64,000 nt of DNA. Origin: Dictyostelium discoideum. Lineage: Eukaryota. Positions 20,784-58,854 of this stretch are shown here, in pieces. The position numbers and the translations under genes are program-made. Position 1 is the first letter of the stretch. Every line of letters starts with the position of its first letter. Location: assembly GCA_000004695.1 (NCBI GenBank), contig CM000151.3, positions 4,736,001 to 4,800,000 on the forward strand, read 5' to 3'. The notes beneath the pieces are model-generated. The model ran no database searches and was not told the origin of the DNA. It was given only the letters and a program-made list of their open reading frames with translations.

Positions 20784-20814
20784 CGATGATGATGACGAGA
20801 TGAAGGAGGATTAA
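19732..20814 (+). CDS. ORF of 360 aa ending in a ~50-residue poly-E/D tail. It is either a separate gene or the frameshifted continuation of the 18213..19760 ORF.
   Basis: The ORF starts at an ATG embedded in GATGTT, 29 nt before the TAA of the preceding ORF. No GT..AG intron explains the +1 shift. The (GAA)n microsatellite 20649..20795 encodes the EEEE... tail, followed by ...DDDDDEMKED*. Confidence 0.4.
20649..20795 (+). repeat. Coding (GAA)n microsatellite of ~48 units, giving a poly-Glu tail.
   Basis: gaagaagaagaa... with a few aaa/gag interruptions, inside ORF 19732..20814. Confidence 0.9.
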
Positions 20815-21027
20815 AAAGAGATGACAAAGTCTAAAAAGAAGATTAATTTTATTTAAAAAGTATTGTTTTTAACATCTCAGTGAATAAGCTATAACCTCAA
20901 TTAATCAATGTTCAATAATCCAGTTTCATTTTTAAAAAAATAAAAAAAATAAAATTAATATTAGTTCGAAATTATCTATATATGCCATATGGCAGATGAT
21001 ATTGTTGTGGTGAGTTTTCACATTAAA
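20803..21027. repeat. Copy 1 of a ~230-bp direct duplication covering the last codons, stop and 3'UTR of the 19732..20814 ORF.
   Basis: ...AAGGAGGATTAAAAAGAGATGACAAAGTCTAAAAAGAAGATTAAT...GAATAAGCTATAACCTCAATTAATCAATGTTCAATAATCCAGTTTC...ATTAGTTCGAAATTATC...TATGCCATAT... recurs at 21456-21690 with ~90 % identity. Confidence 0.8.
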
Positions 21028-21455: not shown

Positions 21456-21690
21456 AGAAGGAGGATTAAAGAGAGATGACAAAGCCTACAAAGAAGATTA
21501 ATATAAGTTATTTAAAAAGTATTATTTTTTAACATATCAATGAATAAGCTATAACCTCAATTAATCAATGTTAAATAATCCAGTTTCTTTCTTTAAAAAA
21601 AATAAAAAAAATAAAAAAAATAAAATTAATATTAGTTCAAAATAATCATTGTATGCCATATATCTATGGTAGATAATATTATTCATAACT
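21456..21690. repeat. Copy 2 of the duplicated gene-3'-end/3'UTR segment. It retains a ...EKED* mini-ORF and stop.
   Basis: GGAGAAGGAGGATTAAAGAGAGATGACAAAGCCTACAAAGAAGATTAAT...GAATAAGCTATAACCTCAATTAATCAATGTTAAATAATCCAGTTTC... Confidence 0.8.
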
Positions 21691-32103: not shown

Positions 32104-37452
<5,349 letters not shown>

Positions 37453-41118: not shown

Positions 41119-41185
<67 letters not shown>

Positions 41186-48887: not shown

Positions 48888-50574
48888 TTATTCTACATCA
48901 GTTAATCTAAAAACATAAACATATGGTGGATAATCTTGTGGTGCAACCATTGGAATGTTTAGTGTAATACCAGGTTTTGTTGATTCAATTGGTAATGATA
49001 CTTCAACACCTTTTTCACCTTTTAAACCTAATAAAGTTGCTTCTGTTTTATTATTACCAATTGGATCACTTAAAATTAAAACACCATCATCTGGTAATTC
49101 AAATACAAATGCATAAACATTACCATTGGTAGTATTTGTAGTATACCAGATGTTAAAAGTCATATTTTGAACTCTCCATGGTGAACTACCATAAATTGAT
49201 TCAGAATTAATTGATAACCAATTACCAATCTCTAATAAACGGTCAACCATATTATTTGGAATTGTACCTTGAGCATCTGGGCCTACATCCAATAAGAAAT
49301 TACCACCACATGCAACCGTTGTTACCAAATCAATTATTAACTCTGTAGCATTTTGATAATCAGTAGCCTGTTCATATTCATCATAACCATATGAATATCC
49401 AATGGTTGCACAATTTTCCCATTTATGTGATTGAAGTTTATATGGATTAAAATGGTCAGCACCAGTATAAAATCCACCATTCTTATCTCTACATTCACTT
49501 CCCCATCTATCATTTACAATTACTGTATCTTTAACACTACTATTTGTATATAACCAACTTAAAAATTCTGTTGATTTCCAATAATTACTTAATTGCATCC
49601 AATCACCATCTGCCCAAATTAATTCAGGTTCTAAAAAATTAAAAATTAAAAAAAAAAAAAAAAAAAAAATTATATTAATAAATATTTTTTAATTAATTAA
49701 TTAATTATATAATAAAAAACCACATACCATATGTTGTAACAATATCTTTTAATTGTTTCATTAAAATTTCATCAACATAAACTTGAGTTGTTGGGTTTTT
49801 ACCAGTTTCAGCATCTGCAAGATATAATGGATTAAACCATTCTATTTTTTTTTTTTTTTTTAAAAAAAAAAACAATATTAGTATTAAAATTAATAAATAA
49901 TAAATTTAATAAAATATTTACCAAATAAAGAATGATAAAGACCCATATGTAAACCCATGTTTTTAACAGATTTTGTTAACTCACCAACGATATCAATACC
50001 AGGACCAGTTTCAACAGAATTCCAATTCCATGATTGTTCACTATTCCAAAGGGTATAACCTTCATGATGTTTTGATGTTAAAACTACATATTTTGCACCA
50101 GATTTTTCAATTATTGATGCCCATTCATTAGCATCGAATAAACGACAATCAAATCTTGAAACGAAATCTTGATATGTAAAATTGGCTCCAAACTCTTTTT
50201 CATGATATCTTTGTGTTGCACCACCATCAGAACTTGGATTTTTTAATGTCCACCAATACCATTCTGCATATCCTCCATTTGCAAATGCTGGTACACTATA
50301 AATTCCAAAATGAATAAATATTCCAAACTTTACATCATCATACTATAATATATTATTATTATTATAAATTTTTTAAAAAAAAAAAAAAAAAATATTAATA
50401 AAAAGTAAAAAATAATAATTATAAAAATAATAATAATAATAATAATAAAAATATAATAATATTTACCCAACCTGGTAATGGTCTTGAATTAATTTGGTCC
50501 CATGTTGGTCCATACTGTTGAGATTTAATTAAATTTAATATTAACAATATAAAAAAAATGATTATCATCTTCAT
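48888..50574 (-). CDS. alfA: Alpha-L-fucosidase (glycoside hydrolase family 29), secreted, 461 aa. Four exons: 50574..50467, 50342..49922, 49841..49728 and 49630..48888.
   Basis: Exon 1 (MKMIIIFFILLILNLIKSQQYGPTWDQINSRPLPGW) ends at GTAAAT at 50466. Exon 2 (YDDVKFGIFIHFGIYSVPAF...EWYWW...KYVVLTSKHHEGYTLWNSEQSWNWNSVETGPGIDIVGEL...LYHSLF+g) ends at GTAAAT at 49921. Exon 3 (EWFNPLYLADAETGKNP...IVTTY+g) ends at GTATGT at 49727. Exon 4 (EPELIWADGDW...FLSWLYTNSSVKDTVIVNDRWG...CGGNFLLDVGPDAQG...). The protein is colinear with human FUCA1 throughout (YDPTWESLD, KFGIFIHWG, LTSKHHEGFTLW, YYSLFEWFHP, GGNLLMNIGP). The introns are 124, 80 and 97 bp. Confidence 0.85.
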
Positions 50575-50764: not shown

Positions 50765-51016
50765 GATCAGTTATACAAATATTTTTTTGAGAATGCCCCA
50801 ACAAAAATAAAAATAAAAATTAAAATAAAAATAAAAATAAAAATAAAAAAAACCCCCACCCCTACCCTATCTAATTAAATTTACAAAAAAAAAAAAAACA
50901 AAATCTATCTAACCAATCATGTTTTTTAAACCCTTTTTTTTACAATTTTTGGGCCAAATATTAAATTAAAAAAAAAGATGAGAAAATTGGATGATTGGGT
51001 AAAATAATATCAGATA

Positions 51017-51066
<50 letters not shown>

Positions 51067-51154
51067 GTTACCTTGAAAGAGGGAATAAAATAATTTATTT
51101 ATTGAATATTTTTGGTCCAGTAAGGAGTCAAAAGCTAAATTTTCAAATAAAACT

Positions 51155-51347
51155 AACCTCCTCTTCCCCCATAAAGAAGGAGTTTGAACGAGCAAATACG
51201 CGATCTCCTTGAAGAGCCGGACTCACGTATAACCCTCGCCCAAGGAGGAGATGTCTAACCATCTTTTAGCCCTAACCTCTTCCGGAAGAGCTCCCCACCC
51301 TCAGCCCCCGGATAATTTGATTTGATTTGATACAGTATTTTTTTTTT
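51155..51347 (+). other. GC-rich (~50 % GC) island of ~190 bp ending in a T-run, directly 5' of the repeat cluster. Candidate structured ncRNA, or the unique terminal part of the repeat element.
   Basis: AACCTCCTCTTCCCCCATAAAGAAGGAGTTTGAACGAGCAAATACGCGATCTCCTTGAAGAGCCGGACTCACGTATAACCCTCGCCCAAGGAGGAGATGTCTAACCATCTTTTAGCCCTAACCTCTTCCGGAAGAGCTCCCCACCCTCAGCCCCCGGATAATTTGATTTGATTTGATACAGTATTTTTTTTTT. It has internal complementarity (CCTCCTC/GAGGAGG; the palindromic CTTCCGGAAG). The base composition is highly atypical for Dictyostelium intergenic DNA. Confidence 0.25.
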
Positions 51348-51354
51348 CAGTAAA

Positions 51355-52346
51355 TATCCTCACCTAAAGACCACCACATGGACTCATAACCACACACCTT
51401 CACCCAAAGACCACCACATACTGACGCATACCCACCCATCCAAACTCCATAAAATTGATACCTAAAAATACTGAATTAAAAATAATTGATTATTATTCTG
51501 TTTTTGCTTTTTATTATTTTATTTTTTTCTTTTTATTTATAATTATATATAATTCTTACCCTATAATCATAAAATATTAAATAGTTACCAATTGACCACC
51601 ACACCTAATACAAATGATACATTAATTAATTAATTTTTTTTTTTACAACACATACCTTCACCCAAAAACCACCACATGTTGACGCATACCCACCCATCCA
51701 ACCCCATTTGCTTTATACCTAAAAATACTGAATTTAAAATAATTAATTATTATTTTTTTCTTTTTATTTATAATTATATAATTCTTACCCTATAATCATA
51801 AAATATTAAATAGTTACCATATTACTACCACACCTAATACAAATGATTTTTTTTTTTTTTTTTTTCACAACAATCATCATTTGTATTAGGTGTGGTAGTA
51901 AATTGGTAACTATTTAATATTTTATGATTATAGGGTAAGAATTATATAATTATAAATAAAAAGAAAAAAATAATAATTAATTATTTTAAATTCAGTATTT
52001 TTAGGTATAAAGCAAATGGGGTTGGATGGGTGGGTATGCGTCAACATGTGGTGGTTTTTGGGTGAAGGTATGTGTTGTAAAAAAAAAAATTAATTAATTA
52101 ATGTATCATTTGTATTAGGTGTGGTGGTCAATTGGTAACTATTTAATATTTTATGACTGTAGGGTAAGAATTATATATAATTATAAATAAAAAGAAAAAT
52201 ATAAAATAATAAAAAGCAAAAACAGAATAAAAACCAATTATTTTTAATTCAGTCTTTTTAGGTATCAATTATATGGGGTTTTGGTTTTTGGGTGAAGGTA
52301 TGCGTTGTAAAAAAAAAAATTAATTAATTAATGTATCATTTGTATT

Positions 52347-52393
<47 letters not shown>

Positions 52394-52626
52394 TTTTCAC
52401 CACACACACCTTCACCTAAAGATCACCACATGTTGACGAATACCCACCCATCCAACCCCATTTAATTGATACCTAAAAATACTAAATTTAAAATAATTAT
52501 TATTCTGTTTTTGCTTACTATTATTTTATTTCTTTTCTTTTTATTTATAATTATATAATTCTTACCCTATAAAACATAAAATATTTATGACTTACCTTAA
52601 AGTTCATCAATTGACCTCATACAAAT

Positions 52627-52680
<54 letters not shown>

Positions 52681-52900
52681 CACAACACATACATTCACCT
52701 AAAGACCACCACATGTTGACGAATACCCACCCATCCAACCCATATGCTTTATACCTAAAAATACTAAATTTAAAATAATTTATTATTATTCTGTTTTTTC
52801 TTTTTATTCATATGATAAAAATATTTAATCTACCACCTATAAATTAAATTAAAAATACCTACCTTGAAAGACCACTCACCGTATGACGCACACACATAAT
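51355..52900. repeat. Cluster of at least 6 copies (full and truncated, both orientations) of a 200-280 bp non-coding interspersed element with a conserved GC-rich ~50-nt 5' core. Unclassified; a possible MITE/SINE-like Dictyostelium repeat.
   Basis: Direct copies start near 51391, 51651, 52392 and 52681. Inverted copies lie at 51876-52078 and 52089-52305, with a fragment at 52313-52346. The shared core is CCTTCACC(C/T)AAAGA(C/T)CACCACAT(G/A)(T/C)TGACG(C/A)ATACCCACCCATCCAA(C/A)C, followed by ..TACCTAAAAATACT(G/A)AATT.AAAATAATT..ATTATT.CTGTTTTTGC...TTATTTATAATTATATAATTCTTACCCTATAA..ATAAAATATT.A..., and in some copies ...ACCACACCTAATACAAATGATACATTAATTAATTAATT. The copies are separated by poly-T/poly-A runs (up to ~70 T at 52345-52392 and 52628-52680). 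Confidence 0.8.
51651..52078. repeat. Near-perfect palindrome: two ~200-bp copies of the element in inverted orientation around a T-run at ~51845-51866.
   Basis: The sequence 51651-51845 equals the reverse complement of 51876-52078 except for 2-3 substitutions (e.g. ACCATATTACTACC vs ACCAATTTACTACC). Confidence 0.85.
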
Positions 52901-53143
52901 AAATATAATTATTATTATTAATTTTTTTTTTTAATTAGTTTTTTATTTTTATTTTTATTTATGTTTTTATTTTTATTCTAATTTAATATTATTTAAATAA
53001 TAAAGAAAAAGGTGAATTAAGTGTATTTCTAAAATTCTATTACTCTCTATCACAATATTTATTTGTTTGCTATAAAATAAAAATAAATAAAAATATAAAA
53101 AAAAAAAAAATTGAAACATTTTTTTTTCCAAATTTGAACACAC

Positions 53144-53175
<32 letters not shown>

Positions 53176-53516
53176 AATTTAATAAATTTATTTATTCATT
53201 ATTTTTAAAAAAAGACATATATTTTATTTGGAAACACCATTATTATATTCTTTATTGAATTCTCCAAGAAAAAAAAAAAAAAAAAAAATTAAGTACGGTA
53301 GTGAATAAATTTATTTTTTAATTTTTAAAATTTGTTTTTTCAATAATTAAATAAAGTTGAGATAATTGATCAAGATCTGTGATATGAATACAATGTTGAG
53401 ATCTATAATCTACATATTTATTTCTTTGAAGATGTTTCAAAGTGTAATAGTAAACCATCTGGAGTGATTTCGCAAGATTTAATATTTCAAAAGTAGAAGA
53501 CCATCTGAATGAGTAG

Positions 53517-53982
53517 TTATTCCTTATTTGTTTGTTTAACAAGGACAATACGAAGATTTGTTATTAAGGTGATATAATTCTTTACACTACCACCACCACC
53601 ACCATTATTGAAATAAATGATATAGAGATGGGAATTTTTGAATCTACCCTTGAAAGTTGTTTCCAAAATGTAGTGACCCTCTGATTGTTCGTGGAAATTA
53701 TATTCAACCAAAAGATTATCAGTGCCAAATAAACGTGGTGGTTCCGATAAGAATGGATTCTCCAATACAATGCATTCAAACATAATGGCGTTCTATCTAA
53801 ACCAATTAGGTCAATTAATGATACACCAATTCTTGGTAATGATAATTGTAAATCCAATTTACAATTTTCAACACAGTTTGTGATAAATATGATGATGAAT
53901 CATCCTTTGGTTGATCATAATTATTATTATTACTATTATCATAAGATAATAGTAATACACATATTGGTCCATCAACTTTCAT
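53517..53982 (-). CDS. Possible small two-exon gene (about 131 aa) of unknown function; alternatively a decaying gene fragment. Exons 53982..53863 and 53792..53517.
   Basis: An ATG at 53982 opens MKVDGPICVLLLSYDNSNNNNYDQPKDDSSSYLSQTVLKI, ending at a GTAAAT donor at 53862. The acceptor gatAG at 53794-53793 joins in phase 0 to NAIMFECIVLENPFLSEPPRLFGTDNLLVEYNFHEQSEGHYILETTFKGRFKNSHLYIIYFNNGGGGGSVKNYITLITNLRIVLVKQTNKE*. The 70-bp intron is less A/T-rich than usual. A further ORF (53318..53548) overlaps the end in another frame. No recognisable domain. Confidence 0.3.
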
Positions 53983-54149
53983 AAATGAATGCAATTTGTA
54001 TTGATGCCTATTTTAATTGGTTTAAAATTCTTACAACCCAATATTACACAATTGATGAAGAGTATGATGATTCAAATGTTGAATGATTTTCAATATATAG
54101 ATTATTATTATTATCATTATTTATATCATTATTTGAATTTGTTGTTGTT

Positions 54150-54235
54150 GATGATGATTATGATTACTATGATTGGAGTGGTAGTAATCATAATCATAAT
54201 CATCATCATAATCATCATCATCATCATCATCATCA
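54150..54235. repeat. (GAT)n/(ATC)n imperfect microsatellite.
   Basis: gatgatgattatgattac...atcataatcatcatcatcatcatcatcatc. Confidence 0.8.
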
Positions 54236-54572
54236 AATTTAATTTGAATTAATTTTTCACCATGTCTATTTGGCCAATGGAATGGTTTTGATTCACCTGG
54301 TTCAATTGATTTACAATCTTTGTACGTTGTAATTTATTTTTACCCAGTATTCTAATCGATGCTCTAAAATTATATCTCTATTATCACTATTTGATTTTAA
54401 TTGTTACTTAAATTCTGGAAATTATTATTATTTATTTGAACAATTGTTAAATTATTTCCTTGATATATAAAAATTTTGATTAAATCCAAGAATTAAAAAT
54501 AAATATAAAAAAAAGATAATTCTTGATTTATATTTTTTTTTTTTTTTTATTTCTTTTTTATTTATTTATTTA

Positions 54573-57180: not shown

Positions 57181-57213
57181 TTAATTTGTGGTGGTGGTTG
57201 AAGTAGTTGTAGT

Positions 57214-57264
<51 letters not shown>

Positions 57265-58801: not shown

Positions 58802-58854
<53 letters not shown>

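Follow-up and report, generated by a model that had tools for sequence, protein, structure and literature searches.

A clustered non-coding repeat with a G-quadruplex-forming motif and a long palindrome upstream of a fucosidase gene on Dictyostelium discoideum chromosome 2

We analyzed a stretch of 64,000 nucleotides of D. discoideum chromosome 2, hereafter called the “window”, within which all positions are counted. Eight copies of a non-coding repeat occupy positions 51347 to ~53005, 0.8–2.4 kb upstream of an α-L-fucosidase gene, whose best protein matches are 38–51% identical, with no exact match in the protein collections searched. Six units are near-complete and two are degenerate, and both orientations occur. 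The unit, about 230–280 bp long, starts with a homopolymer T-run, which is followed by a C-rich, almost G-free core of ~60 nt and then by an AT-rich body. The G-strand of the core contains the exact 19-mer TGGGGTTGGATGGGTGGGT, which is known as p5. The parts of the array are as follows (U0 to U7, units; a and b, subtypes; profile, match to a profile built from the units).

51347–51393, plus strand: U0, partial diverged core after T10 (core profile match 51354–51393, E = 2e-4)
51391–51633, plus strand: U1 (subtype a), core and body, then the 16-nt linker TACATTAATTAATTAA (profile 51391–51616, E = 1e-63)
51430–52293, no strand: palindrome, with arms 51430–51854 and 51869–52293 and a 14-nt spacer
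51634–51846, plus strand: U2 (subtype b), T11 first, exact p5 complement (profile 51646–51845)
51847–51873, no strand: palindrome centre, T19 and CACAACA joined to the start of the inverted U3
51877–52078, minus strand: U3 (subtype b), inverted twin of U2, exact p5 on the plus strand (profile 51878–52077)
52106–52308, minus strand: U4 (subtype a), inverted counterpart of U1 (profile 52107–52308)
52309–52348, minus strand: relic junction, A11, linker and the opening 13 nt of a further minus-strand unit
52349–52628, plus strand: U5 (subtype a), T43ATTTTT first, exact p5 complement (profile 52400–52628, E = 4e-58)
52629–52857, plus strand: U6 (subtype b), T52 first, further body deletions (profile 52683–52846, E = 2e-39)
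52858–53005, plus strand: U7, old degenerate unit, core still discernible as CCTACCTTGAAAGACCACTCACCGTATGACGCACACACA
51688–51706 (minus), 52017–52035 (plus) and 52442–52460 (minus): exact copies of p5
51430–51448 (3 mismatches) and 52725–52743 (2 mismatches): near copies of p5

Several units bear individual marks. U0 abuts U1 at a 40-nt offset, which suggests that part of the core was duplicated internally. The core of U1 carries CATACTGACG in place of CATGTTGACG, and the body of U2 lacks a 27-nt segment. U3 differs from U2 by two substitutions in the body and none in the core, while in U4 a 28-nt deletion has taken out the G-quadruplex (G4) part of the core. The p5 complement of U6 has two mismatches. 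The body of U7 aligns with positions 84–189 of U1 (score 68, as compared to a shuffle maximum of 55). At the palindrome centre, CACAACA represents the first 7 nt of a further plus-strand unit.

The cluster is genuine and far above chance, although as a find it is fairly ordinary. A 35-nt core pattern matched five times with at most three mismatches, as compared to zero matches expected from shuffled sequences. The profile detected six near-full copies and one partial core, all of them in the array, and no unit in the rest of the 64 kb. A preliminary description of this DNA, made from the sequence alone, had reported at least six copies in both orientations, and these searches bear it out. The cluster that it placed at 51355–52900 is likewise real, but the array is longer and includes the degenerate eighth unit at 52858 to ~53005. 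The 5′ truncations it described are not present, as both unit boundaries are common to the copies, and the ~50-nt GC-rich core that it quoted is a 49-mer consensus, found exactly in no single copy. The core-to-core spacings are 258, 230, and 283 nt; TRF did not report this 230–283-nt period because of the indels between the units.

The p5 motif connects the array with published work. In vitro, the 19-mer adopts a parallel G-quadruplex fold, with a Tm of 55 °C in 100 mM KCl (Saad et al. 2019, PMC6511855). Published copies number three at chromosome 2 positions 4788017–4788460, two on chromosome 1, and five on chromosome 5, and p5 is thus multicopy and clustered, with the latter two clusters at 1,755,955–1,756,455 and 849,448–850,835, respectively (PMC6511855). 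Two of the exact p5 positions in the window equal the published chromosome 2 coordinates minus 4,736,000, which puts the window at 4,736,001–4,800,000 on chromosome 2 of strain AX4. With a 25-nt window and a threshold of 1.5, G4Hunter gave 1.52–1.56 at the three exact copies, and five of the seven regions scoring at least 1.5 in the window lie at 50.8–52.5 kb. In the preliminary description, a lack of copies elsewhere in the genome was to count against its reading; this check came out in its favor, as the core 19-mer also forms clusters on chromosomes 1 and 5. Taken together, the published p5 copies on chromosomes 1, 2, and 5 indicate a repeat family of low copy number that is dispersed and invariably found in clusters. 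Literature searches with core 15–17-mers returned no match, p5 stopping two bases short of that k-mer, and neither did searches with the genomic coordinates of the locus. In metagenome, prokaryote-genome, and viral collections, the core gave only two chance 21-mer matches, in GC-rich bacterial contigs.

Does the core regulate the neighboring gene? The G/T-rich strand could present G-box (GBF-type) sites that, together with the G-quadruplex, would make the array a developmental enhancer or a G4 switch. Within the 1.5-kb array there are 21 G-box motif matches, two or three per unit; p5 adopts a G4 fold, as described above; Saad et al. report an enrichment of G4 motifs among Dictyostelium promoters (PMC6511855); and another strong C-rich motif is located at 50841–50879, ~270–300 bp upstream of the ATG. 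However, the motif density follows from the strand composition of the repeated unit, and most of the array lies beyond the 500–1000-bp promoter windows of Saad et al., who found the RNA-seq and EST coverage at the p5 loci too low for UTR or promoter assignment (PMC6511855). The core also shows no clear constraint, as one copy has lost its G4 part and others are degenerate. On balance, we regard a cis-regulatory array as improbable.

The constraint on the core deserves closer description. Between units, pairwise substitution is 7–13% in the core and 6–23% in the body. The pair U1 and U2 differs by 9.1% in the core and 7.8% in the body, while the pairs with U5 and U6 differ by 7–10% and 15–23%, respectively. 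The body diverges mostly by indels in low-complexity AT sequence. The core had been called nearly invariant, which these values do not sustain: U4 lacks 28 nt of it, and the cores of U0 and U7 are degenerate. The further suggestion of a selectively conserved, functional core likewise finds no support in the substitution counts. The core is therefore without measurable protection from mutation, although weak constraint is possible because the core rate is somewhat below the body rate in the U5 and U6 pairs. The conserved appearance of the core may come mainly from the youth of the copies. In addition, its complex sequence would be spared the slippage by which the AT-rich body becomes scrambled, which would add to the conserved look.

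Next, we consider how the units are joined. A 67-nt junction, composed of the end of a core, A11, the 16-nt linker, and the 13 nt that open the next unit, recurs at 99% identity: positions 52052–52118 equal 52282–52348 and the reverse complement of 51605–51671. The relic junction at 52309–52348, which is ended by the next T-run, belongs to this duplicated segment. Moreover, the array contains an inverted duplication with 425-nt arms that are 96% complementary, and the part from 41 to 295 nt off its centre is free of mismatches. As single-stranded DNA, this palindrome would fold into a hairpin of −413 kcal/mol, as compared to −78 kcal/mol for shuffled sequences. The subtypes alternate, with U1, U4, and U5 belonging to a and U2, U3, and U6 to b. 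Informative sites between the units are mosaic, 4 against 3. The a/b dimer model draws on these few sites plus one large indel, and its a+b dimer of ~480–490 nt is near the 482-nt spacing of the chromosome 1 copies. The duplicated junctions, the alternating subtypes, and the palindrome together show that duplication at the DNA level, and not separate insertion, produced much of the array. The 67-nt junction and the inverted duplication support the earlier proposal of a site-specific amplification.

Neither a protein nor any recognizable or unusually stable RNA is encoded in the array. It contains no ORF, and no reverse-transcriptase-like ORF was found in or near it. ARAGORN, with introns allowed, detected no tRNA gene anywhere in the window. 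A tRNA or SINE head was considered and discarded, as relaxed thresholds yielded only poor folds (one tRNA-like fold, at the 80% threshold), and no B box was found in the window. The same fate befell a structured RNA, since the core, on both strands (z from −1.0 to +0.5), and the neighboring GC block fold no better than shuffled sequences. A known RNA family was dismissed in turn, as no Rfam family reached its gathering score; scanned by E-value, Rfam gave only generic hairpin and miRNA matches at the palindrome centre. On the minus strand, AG and GT flank the core, in which one frame is open. A relic coding exon was rejected, because the segment varies in length (62–64 nt) and one copy contains a stop, indicating no coding constraint.

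The extreme hairpin potential of the palindrome raises the question of small RNAs. If transcribed, the 425-bp-arm palindrome would give a long hairpin RNA that could be diced to siRNAs or a young miRNA, or each T-run and core could together form a small non-coding RNA gene. Below-threshold matches to miRNA precursors do lie at the palindrome centre, but they are far under the gathering scores, as any long hairpin would give. Small non-coding RNA genes of Dictyostelium (Class I, snRNA, and snoRNA) feature a DUSE ~60 nt upstream, with the consensus [AT]CCCA[CT]AA, and a structured, conserved RNA; in a by-eye reading no DUSE was seen in the core, which has no stable fold either. T-runs do precede Dictyostelium pri-miRNA start sites, and the multicopy thug-S yields miRNAs (PMC6161686, PMC4894637). 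None of the unit sequences, however, appears in the miRNA tables that supplement two small-RNA studies on Dictyostelium, and the RNA-seq coverage at the p5 loci is reported as low (PMC6511855). We consider a small-RNA source highly improbable.

The homopolymer runs invite a different explanation. T-runs of 10, 11, 19, 43, and 52 nt precede the cores, the side being the same for all complete units, and on the minus strand every complete unit thereby ends in A10 to A52, an A-rich tail like those of TRE5 and TRE3. The T-runs had been described as separating the copies. T11, T19, T43, and T52 do stand before cores, but A/T runs of at least 12 nt are common, with 116 in the window. Three of the window's six A/T runs of at least 40 nt are at the array: two of them separate units, and one lies ~280 bp to the left. 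The units could be nested copies of a short A-tailed (SINE-like) retroposon or of a single 5′-truncated 3′ fragment of a non-LTR retrotransposon. Read on the minus strand, the unit would then run from TCATTTGTATTAGG... to ...GGGTGAAGGTATGTGTTGTG and end in (A)10–52, and new copies would have entered the A-tails of older ones by target-primed reverse transcription, with the G-rich 3′ end as the recognition signal of the reverse transcriptase. The variable length and constant side of the homopolymer, as well as the same two boundaries in the units, agree with this reading. Dictyostelium elements reportedly tend to insert beside members of their own family, as Glockner et al. are said to have found in 2001. 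The family is also present on three chromosomes and always clustered (PMC6511855), and an A-tailed retroposon fits the homopolymer side and this spread at least as well as ectopic duplication does.

Against these points, at least four copies are not insertions, because of the 99% duplicated junction and the inverted duplication, which made two units. No target-site duplications, which the preliminary description had recommended looking for at the copy boundaries, were seen at unit or array boundaries; the units abut tails or linkers directly. The units thus lack the SINE hallmarks of a Pol III promoter within the element (A and B boxes), a head derived from tRNA, 5S, or 7SL RNA, and target-site duplications; neither a tRNA-like part nor an Rfam match at the gathering score was found. 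The TRE5-A 3′ end contains a hairpin (C-module) that is required for retrotransposition (PMC3159450), whereas the 3′ 68 nt of the unit fold no better than shuffled sequences, with −8.2 kcal/mol and z = +0.5, as compared to −20 and −12.5 kcal/mol at 22 °C for the TRE5-A and TRE5-C 3′ ends, values that differ from ours in temperature and length (PMC3159450). In addition, nearly all D. discoideum TRE copies adjoin tRNA genes (PMC5006619), and the window has none; A/T runs of at least 12 nt are, moreover, frequent in any case. A retroposon nest is unlikely in our estimation. The small non-autonomous mobile element to which the preliminary description likened the units may still apply: they have neither terminal inverted repeats nor target-site duplications nor Pol III boxes, but they do end in an A-run on the minus strand.

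A related question is whether the units are fragments of an already classified element, such as a TRE3 or TRE5 3′ end, DGLT-A or H3R, DDT, thug, or Tdd. Classified repeats reportedly make up ~10% of the genome and tend to nest, again according to what Glockner et al. are said to have described in 2001. Beside the array, a block of 271 bp with 42% GC (51065–51335) is close in length to the DGLT-A solo LTR of 265 bp (PMC5006619). DGLT-A and H3R, however, are positioned 13–33 bp upstream of a tRNA gene, and TRE copies 37–90 bp upstream or 14–305 bp downstream of one (PMC5006619, Table 1), whereas no tRNA gene adjoins the block or occurs anywhere in the 64 kb. MITEs and DNA transposons (thug, DDT, Tdd) feature terminal inverted repeats; none occur at the unit ends, and the inverted repeats inside the units are short and AT-rich. 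Nearby there is no ORF for a reverse transcriptase or a transposase, the ~10 exact core copies are fewer than those of most classified families, and the p5 loci are given as intergenic or “hypothetical protein”, with no mention of a transposon, by Saad et al. (PMC6511855). A classified element is, in our view, a highly improbable source of the array.

The reading that we lean towards, by a modest preference, is that the array represents an unclassified non-coding repeat, locally amplified by recombination and replication errors. The eight units are shown to be largely local, DNA-level products. Units or a/b dimers were duplicated in tandem, with exchange between neighboring units, and small microhomology deletions and duplications arose within the core. 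A very recent fold-back (inverted) duplication produced the 425-bp-arm palindrome. Old units, such as the degenerate U0 and U7, are decaying at the array edges, and young units lie in the centre. The G4-prone core, the homopolymer tracts of 40–50 nt, and the long palindrome may all obstruct replication, and this obstruction probably promotes fork stalling, template switching, and unequal exchange, leading to continued expansion and rearrangement.

A bolder version can also be framed. The family might be an unclassified, tRNA-independent, short A-tailed retroposon with a G-quadruplex 3′ end, which targets the tails of its own copies and whose mini-arrays on several chromosomes are remodelled at the DNA level; in a variant of this scenario, the young palindrome would be a nascent hairpin-siRNA locus. 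We judge this combination, including the variant, to be distinctly unlikely. If the retroposon reading were true, the repeat would be a tRNA-independent, non-autonomous element in a genome where the TRE5, TRE3, and DGLT-A copies nearly all adjoin tRNA genes, and it would belong to a SINE-like class so far unlisted for Dictyostelium.

What does the array mean for the genome as a whole? A proposal in the literature presents D. discoideum as a “G4-poor” model, with no more than 249–1055 G4-prone motifs (PMC6511855), and at least ten of them are supplied by this repeat family. Therefore, G4 surveys should treat these as a single amplified element and not as promoter motifs independent of one another. 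Moreover, a G4 core, homopolymers of 40–50 nt, and a near-perfect palindrome co-occur here in a haploid genome, and this combination makes the locus a natural place to test for instability linked to replication and for wild isolates that differ in copy number. In practical terms, the value is modest.

Finally, we compared the array with known systems. The closest is p5 itself (Saad et al. 2019, NAR 47:4363, PMC6511855), as the same 19-mer occurs exactly three times in the array. That study, which already notes the clustering of p5, covers the 19-nt motif only and describes neither the ~230-bp unit with its a/b subtypes and T-runs nor the palindrome and the degenerate copies.

SINEs, Zepp-like clusters, and the Dictyostelium TRE elements share with the array an A-run at a constant unit end, a head-to-tail arrangement behind the previous tail, and clustering. 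Unlike them, the array has no target-site duplications, Pol III promoter, nearby coding partner, or tRNA gene target, and several of its copies are demonstrably DNA-level duplicates.

Fold-back (template-switch) palindromes likewise have long arms around a short spacer, here 425 and 14 nt, with identity highest toward the centre. The centre of the present palindrome is at a unit boundary beside the T19 run. In contrast to fold-back palindromes, it is embedded in a repeat array, not in unique DNA, and, as read from assembled sequence, it might include a cloning or assembly error.

Tandem arrays and low-copy satellites with unequal exchange, which have higher-order repeats, a homogenised centre, and degenerate edges, likewise consist of head-to-tail units with shared junctions, two alternating subtypes, and mosaic variants between neighbors, with the youngest copies in the centre and decayed ones at the edges. 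The present array differs from them in having only eight units, part of them inverted, and from a purely local satellite in that its repeat family forms mini-arrays on three chromosomes.

The array, a cluster of eight non-coding repeat units of ~230 bp (U0 to U7, from left to right), lies within a 2.7-kb intergenic stretch. The window is very AT-rich (24% GC) and its intron-containing genes are of the ordinary kind, as is usual for Dictyostelium. The arrangement is as follows.

Units of the array and flanking genes (window coordinates, strand, feature)
48888-49598, minus: exon of the alpha-L-fucosidase gene (ATG at 50574), with Pfam Alpha_L_fucos and Fucosidase_C matches
51347-51393, plus: U0, partial core
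51391-51617, plus: U1
51645-51846, plus: U2
51877-52078, minus: U3
52106-52308, minus: U4
52399-52628, plus: U5
52682-52857, plus: U6
52858-~53005, plus: U7, degenerate (alignment score 68, shuffle maximum 55)
53318-54310, minus: frameshifted gene remnant, with a Pfam VPS13_C match at 53517-53783 (E 7e-8)

The sequence reading, the repeat finder, the alignment and the profile search agree on the anatomy of the unit. On the plus strand, a T-run is followed by a ~60-nt C-rich, almost G-free segment (the core; consensus CACAACACATACCTTCACCCAAAGACCACCACATGTTGACGCATACCCACCCATCCAACCCC, 46-54% GC, 3-4 G) and then by the AT-rich body (16-18% GC), which terminates in ...ACCACACCTAATACAAATGA. The preliminary description had proposed a dense repeat cluster here, and the 35-nt core pattern confirms it, with five matches in the window and none in shuffles; the real array is ~100 bp longer than was then stated. 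No further unit copies exist elsewhere in the 64-kb window.

The core had also been described as nearly invariant against a divergent body. Any special conservation of the core is weak, and the near-invariance does not hold: substitutions between units range from 7 to 13% for the core and from 6 to 23% for the body, most of whose apparent divergence consists of indels in low-complexity AT sequence, and in the U1/U2 pair the core has diverged more than the body (9.1% vs 7.8%). Moreover, U4 has lost 28 nt, exactly the G-quadruplex (G4) part of its core, the U7 core is badly decayed, and U0 is a partial core duplication with an offset of 40 nt. The core therefore bears no clear mark of purifying selection.

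How did the array arise? Tandem and inverted duplications of DNA, rather than separate insertions, enlarged and rearranged it, and its edges decay. A 67-nt junction, which runs from the core end through A11 and the linker TTAATTAATTAATGTA to nt 13 of the next unit, occurs three times at 99% identity. The palindrome arms 51430-51854 and 51869-52293 (425 nt each, 14-nt spacer) are 96% complementary overall and free of mismatches from 41 to 295 nt off the centre, which lies just past T19 and the 7 initial nucleotides of a further unit; a single DNA strand of the palindrome folds at -413 kcal/mol, as compared to -78 for shuffles. The youngest units lie in the middle of the array and the decayed ones at its edges. 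Two body subtypes alternate along it: subtype a (U1, U4, U5) carries AATTGATACC and a 27-nt segment, while subtype b (U2, U3, U6) carries GCTTTATACC but is without the segment. Informative sites form a mosaic, in which four pair U1 with U5 and U2 with U6, and three, mostly in the core, pair U1 with U2 and U5 with U6. This suggests, on thin support, that an a+b dimer was duplicated and that neighbouring units then exchanged sequence. The G4-prone cores, the 43-52-nt homopolymers and the palindrome would obstruct replication, which could plausibly lead to fork stalling, template switching and unequal exchange within the array.

The main rival account invokes an A-tailed, SINE-like retroposon, each new copy of which would enter the tail of an earlier one. 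A homopolymer does lie on the same side of every complete unit, and three of the six A/T runs of ≥40 nt in the window are at the array (two between units, one ~280 bp to the left). As an account of the whole array, however, it faces several copies that are demonstrably DNA duplicates, and A/T runs are abundant, with 116 of ≥12 nt in the window. No target-site duplications or Pol III boxes (B boxes included) were found, nor apparently a stable 3′ hairpin, and the TRE copies of D. discoideum almost all adjoin tRNA genes (PMC5006619; PMC3159450). The whole window contains no tRNA gene, even with introns allowed; relaxed thresholds yielded only a poor tRNA-like fold, inside the GC block directly left of the array.

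Compared by structure, the units lack the tRNA adjacency, terminal inverted repeats and ORFs of classified families such as thug, DDT and TRE; the array has no ORF of note. The minus strand of the core has AG and GT at its flanks and an open frame; however, the segment varies in length (62-64 nt) and one copy contains a stop, so the core is not a conserved exon. Neither strand of the core folds more stably than shuffles (z -0.3 to -1.0, and +0.5). Core patterns searched for in metagenomes, viral contigs and the genomes of prokaryotes gave just two matches, both by chance.

That the array gives rise to hairpin siRNA is possible but unsupported: two Dictyostelium studies list none of the unit sequences in their supplementary miRNA tables. 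No Rfam family reached its gathering score, and a permissive scan matched only miRNA-precursor models at the palindrome centre (26-34 bits, thresholds 52-100), as any long hairpin would.

A regulatory role, through GBF-type sites or the G4, has some support. Upstream of the fucosidase ATG, the array occupies the interval from 0.8 to 2.4 kb, and the whole window has 59 GBF-type sites vs 38 expected. Against such a role, the site density results from the strand composition of the unit, and the core is without visible constraint. The highest G4Hunter value in the window (1.84) belongs to 50841-50879, ~270-300 bp ahead of the fucosidase start codon. This region, C-rich on the plus strand (AAACCCCCACCCCTACCC), includes three GBF-type heptamers that overlap; as a promoter element it is more plausible than the array.

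The GC block 51065-51335 (271 bp, 42% GC; 48% over 51113-51320), which adjoins the array on its left and is preceded by A46, includes CTCTTCCGGAAGAG, a perfect palindrome, as well as a G4Hunter region that is C-rich (1.68 at 51285-51317), but no ORF, Rfam match or fold beating shuffles. In length it is like the DGLT-A solo LTR (H3R, 265 bp); tRNA genes, however, are absent from its vicinity. A marginal alignment (33, shuffle maximum 32) suggests that a unit body may have left a relic in its first ~55 nt. On the right, the remnant is a series of short minus-strand ORFs with a shifting frame and has the appearance of a decayed gene, suggesting a pseudogene fragment of a VPS13-family gene in a rearrangement-prone neighbourhood. 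In the protein collections searched, nothing closely related to the fucosidase turned up (best match to the exon, 51% identical), and close relatives of the window's proteins are apparently absent from them.

Elsewhere in the window, the final codons of a gene and its 3′ flank (20802-20990) are copied ~650 bp downstream (21457-21661; 205 nt, 85%), with a 57-nt inverted repeat between the copies (21093-21149/21259-21315, 95%); small intergenic duplications are thus not unique to the array. A tandem 113-nt duplication lies at 1223-1455 (89%), and 32494-32556 and 57202-57264, 25 kb apart, share a 63-nt sequence (97%), one copy of which falls within a long ORF on the minus strand. Outside the array, too, there are very long homopolymers (A51 at 1292, T64 at 41120-41183, A51 at 58802-58852), and runs of 40-60 nt are therefore general in the non-coding DNA of this genome.

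On the minus strand, the core reads ...ATGGGGTTGGATGGGTGGGTATGCG... and thereby matches p5 (TGGGGTTGGATGGGTGGGT), a G4-prone sequence published with its locations by Saad et al. 2019 (PMC6511855, Table 2). Exactly three perfect copies occur in the window, at 51688-51706 (minus), 52017-52035 (plus) and 52442-52460 (minus). Positions 52017 and 52460 equal the published chromosome 2 limits minus 4,736,000, or 74 × 64,000; we therefore infer that the array, in AX4 chr2:4,736,001-4,800,000, is that locus. In 100 mM KCl, an oligonucleotide of p5 folds into a parallel G-quadruplex with a Tm of 55 °C; the G4Hunter score of p5 is 2.00, and its RNA-seq/EST coverage was too low for placement in a UTR or promoter (PMC6511855). 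G4Hunter, scored over 25 nt, gives 1.52-1.56 at the three exact copies, and five of the seven regions of the window at ≥1.5 fall at 50.8-52.5 kb. That the core motif forms a G4, and that it is multicopy and clustered, has already been published (PMC6511855); in the literature searched, we found no description of the unit structure, the array history or the palindrome. The array is a real, locally amplified, low-copy non-coding repeat of modest interest. From the published p5 loci, the family is present on at least three chromosomes, in low copy (at least 10 exact cores) and clustered at each locus. On chromosome 1, two p5 copies (1755973-1755955 and 1756455-1756437) flank DDB_G0268466 (PMC6511855), and their spacing of 482 nt would correspond to about one a+b dimer of the present array (258 + 221-230 nt).
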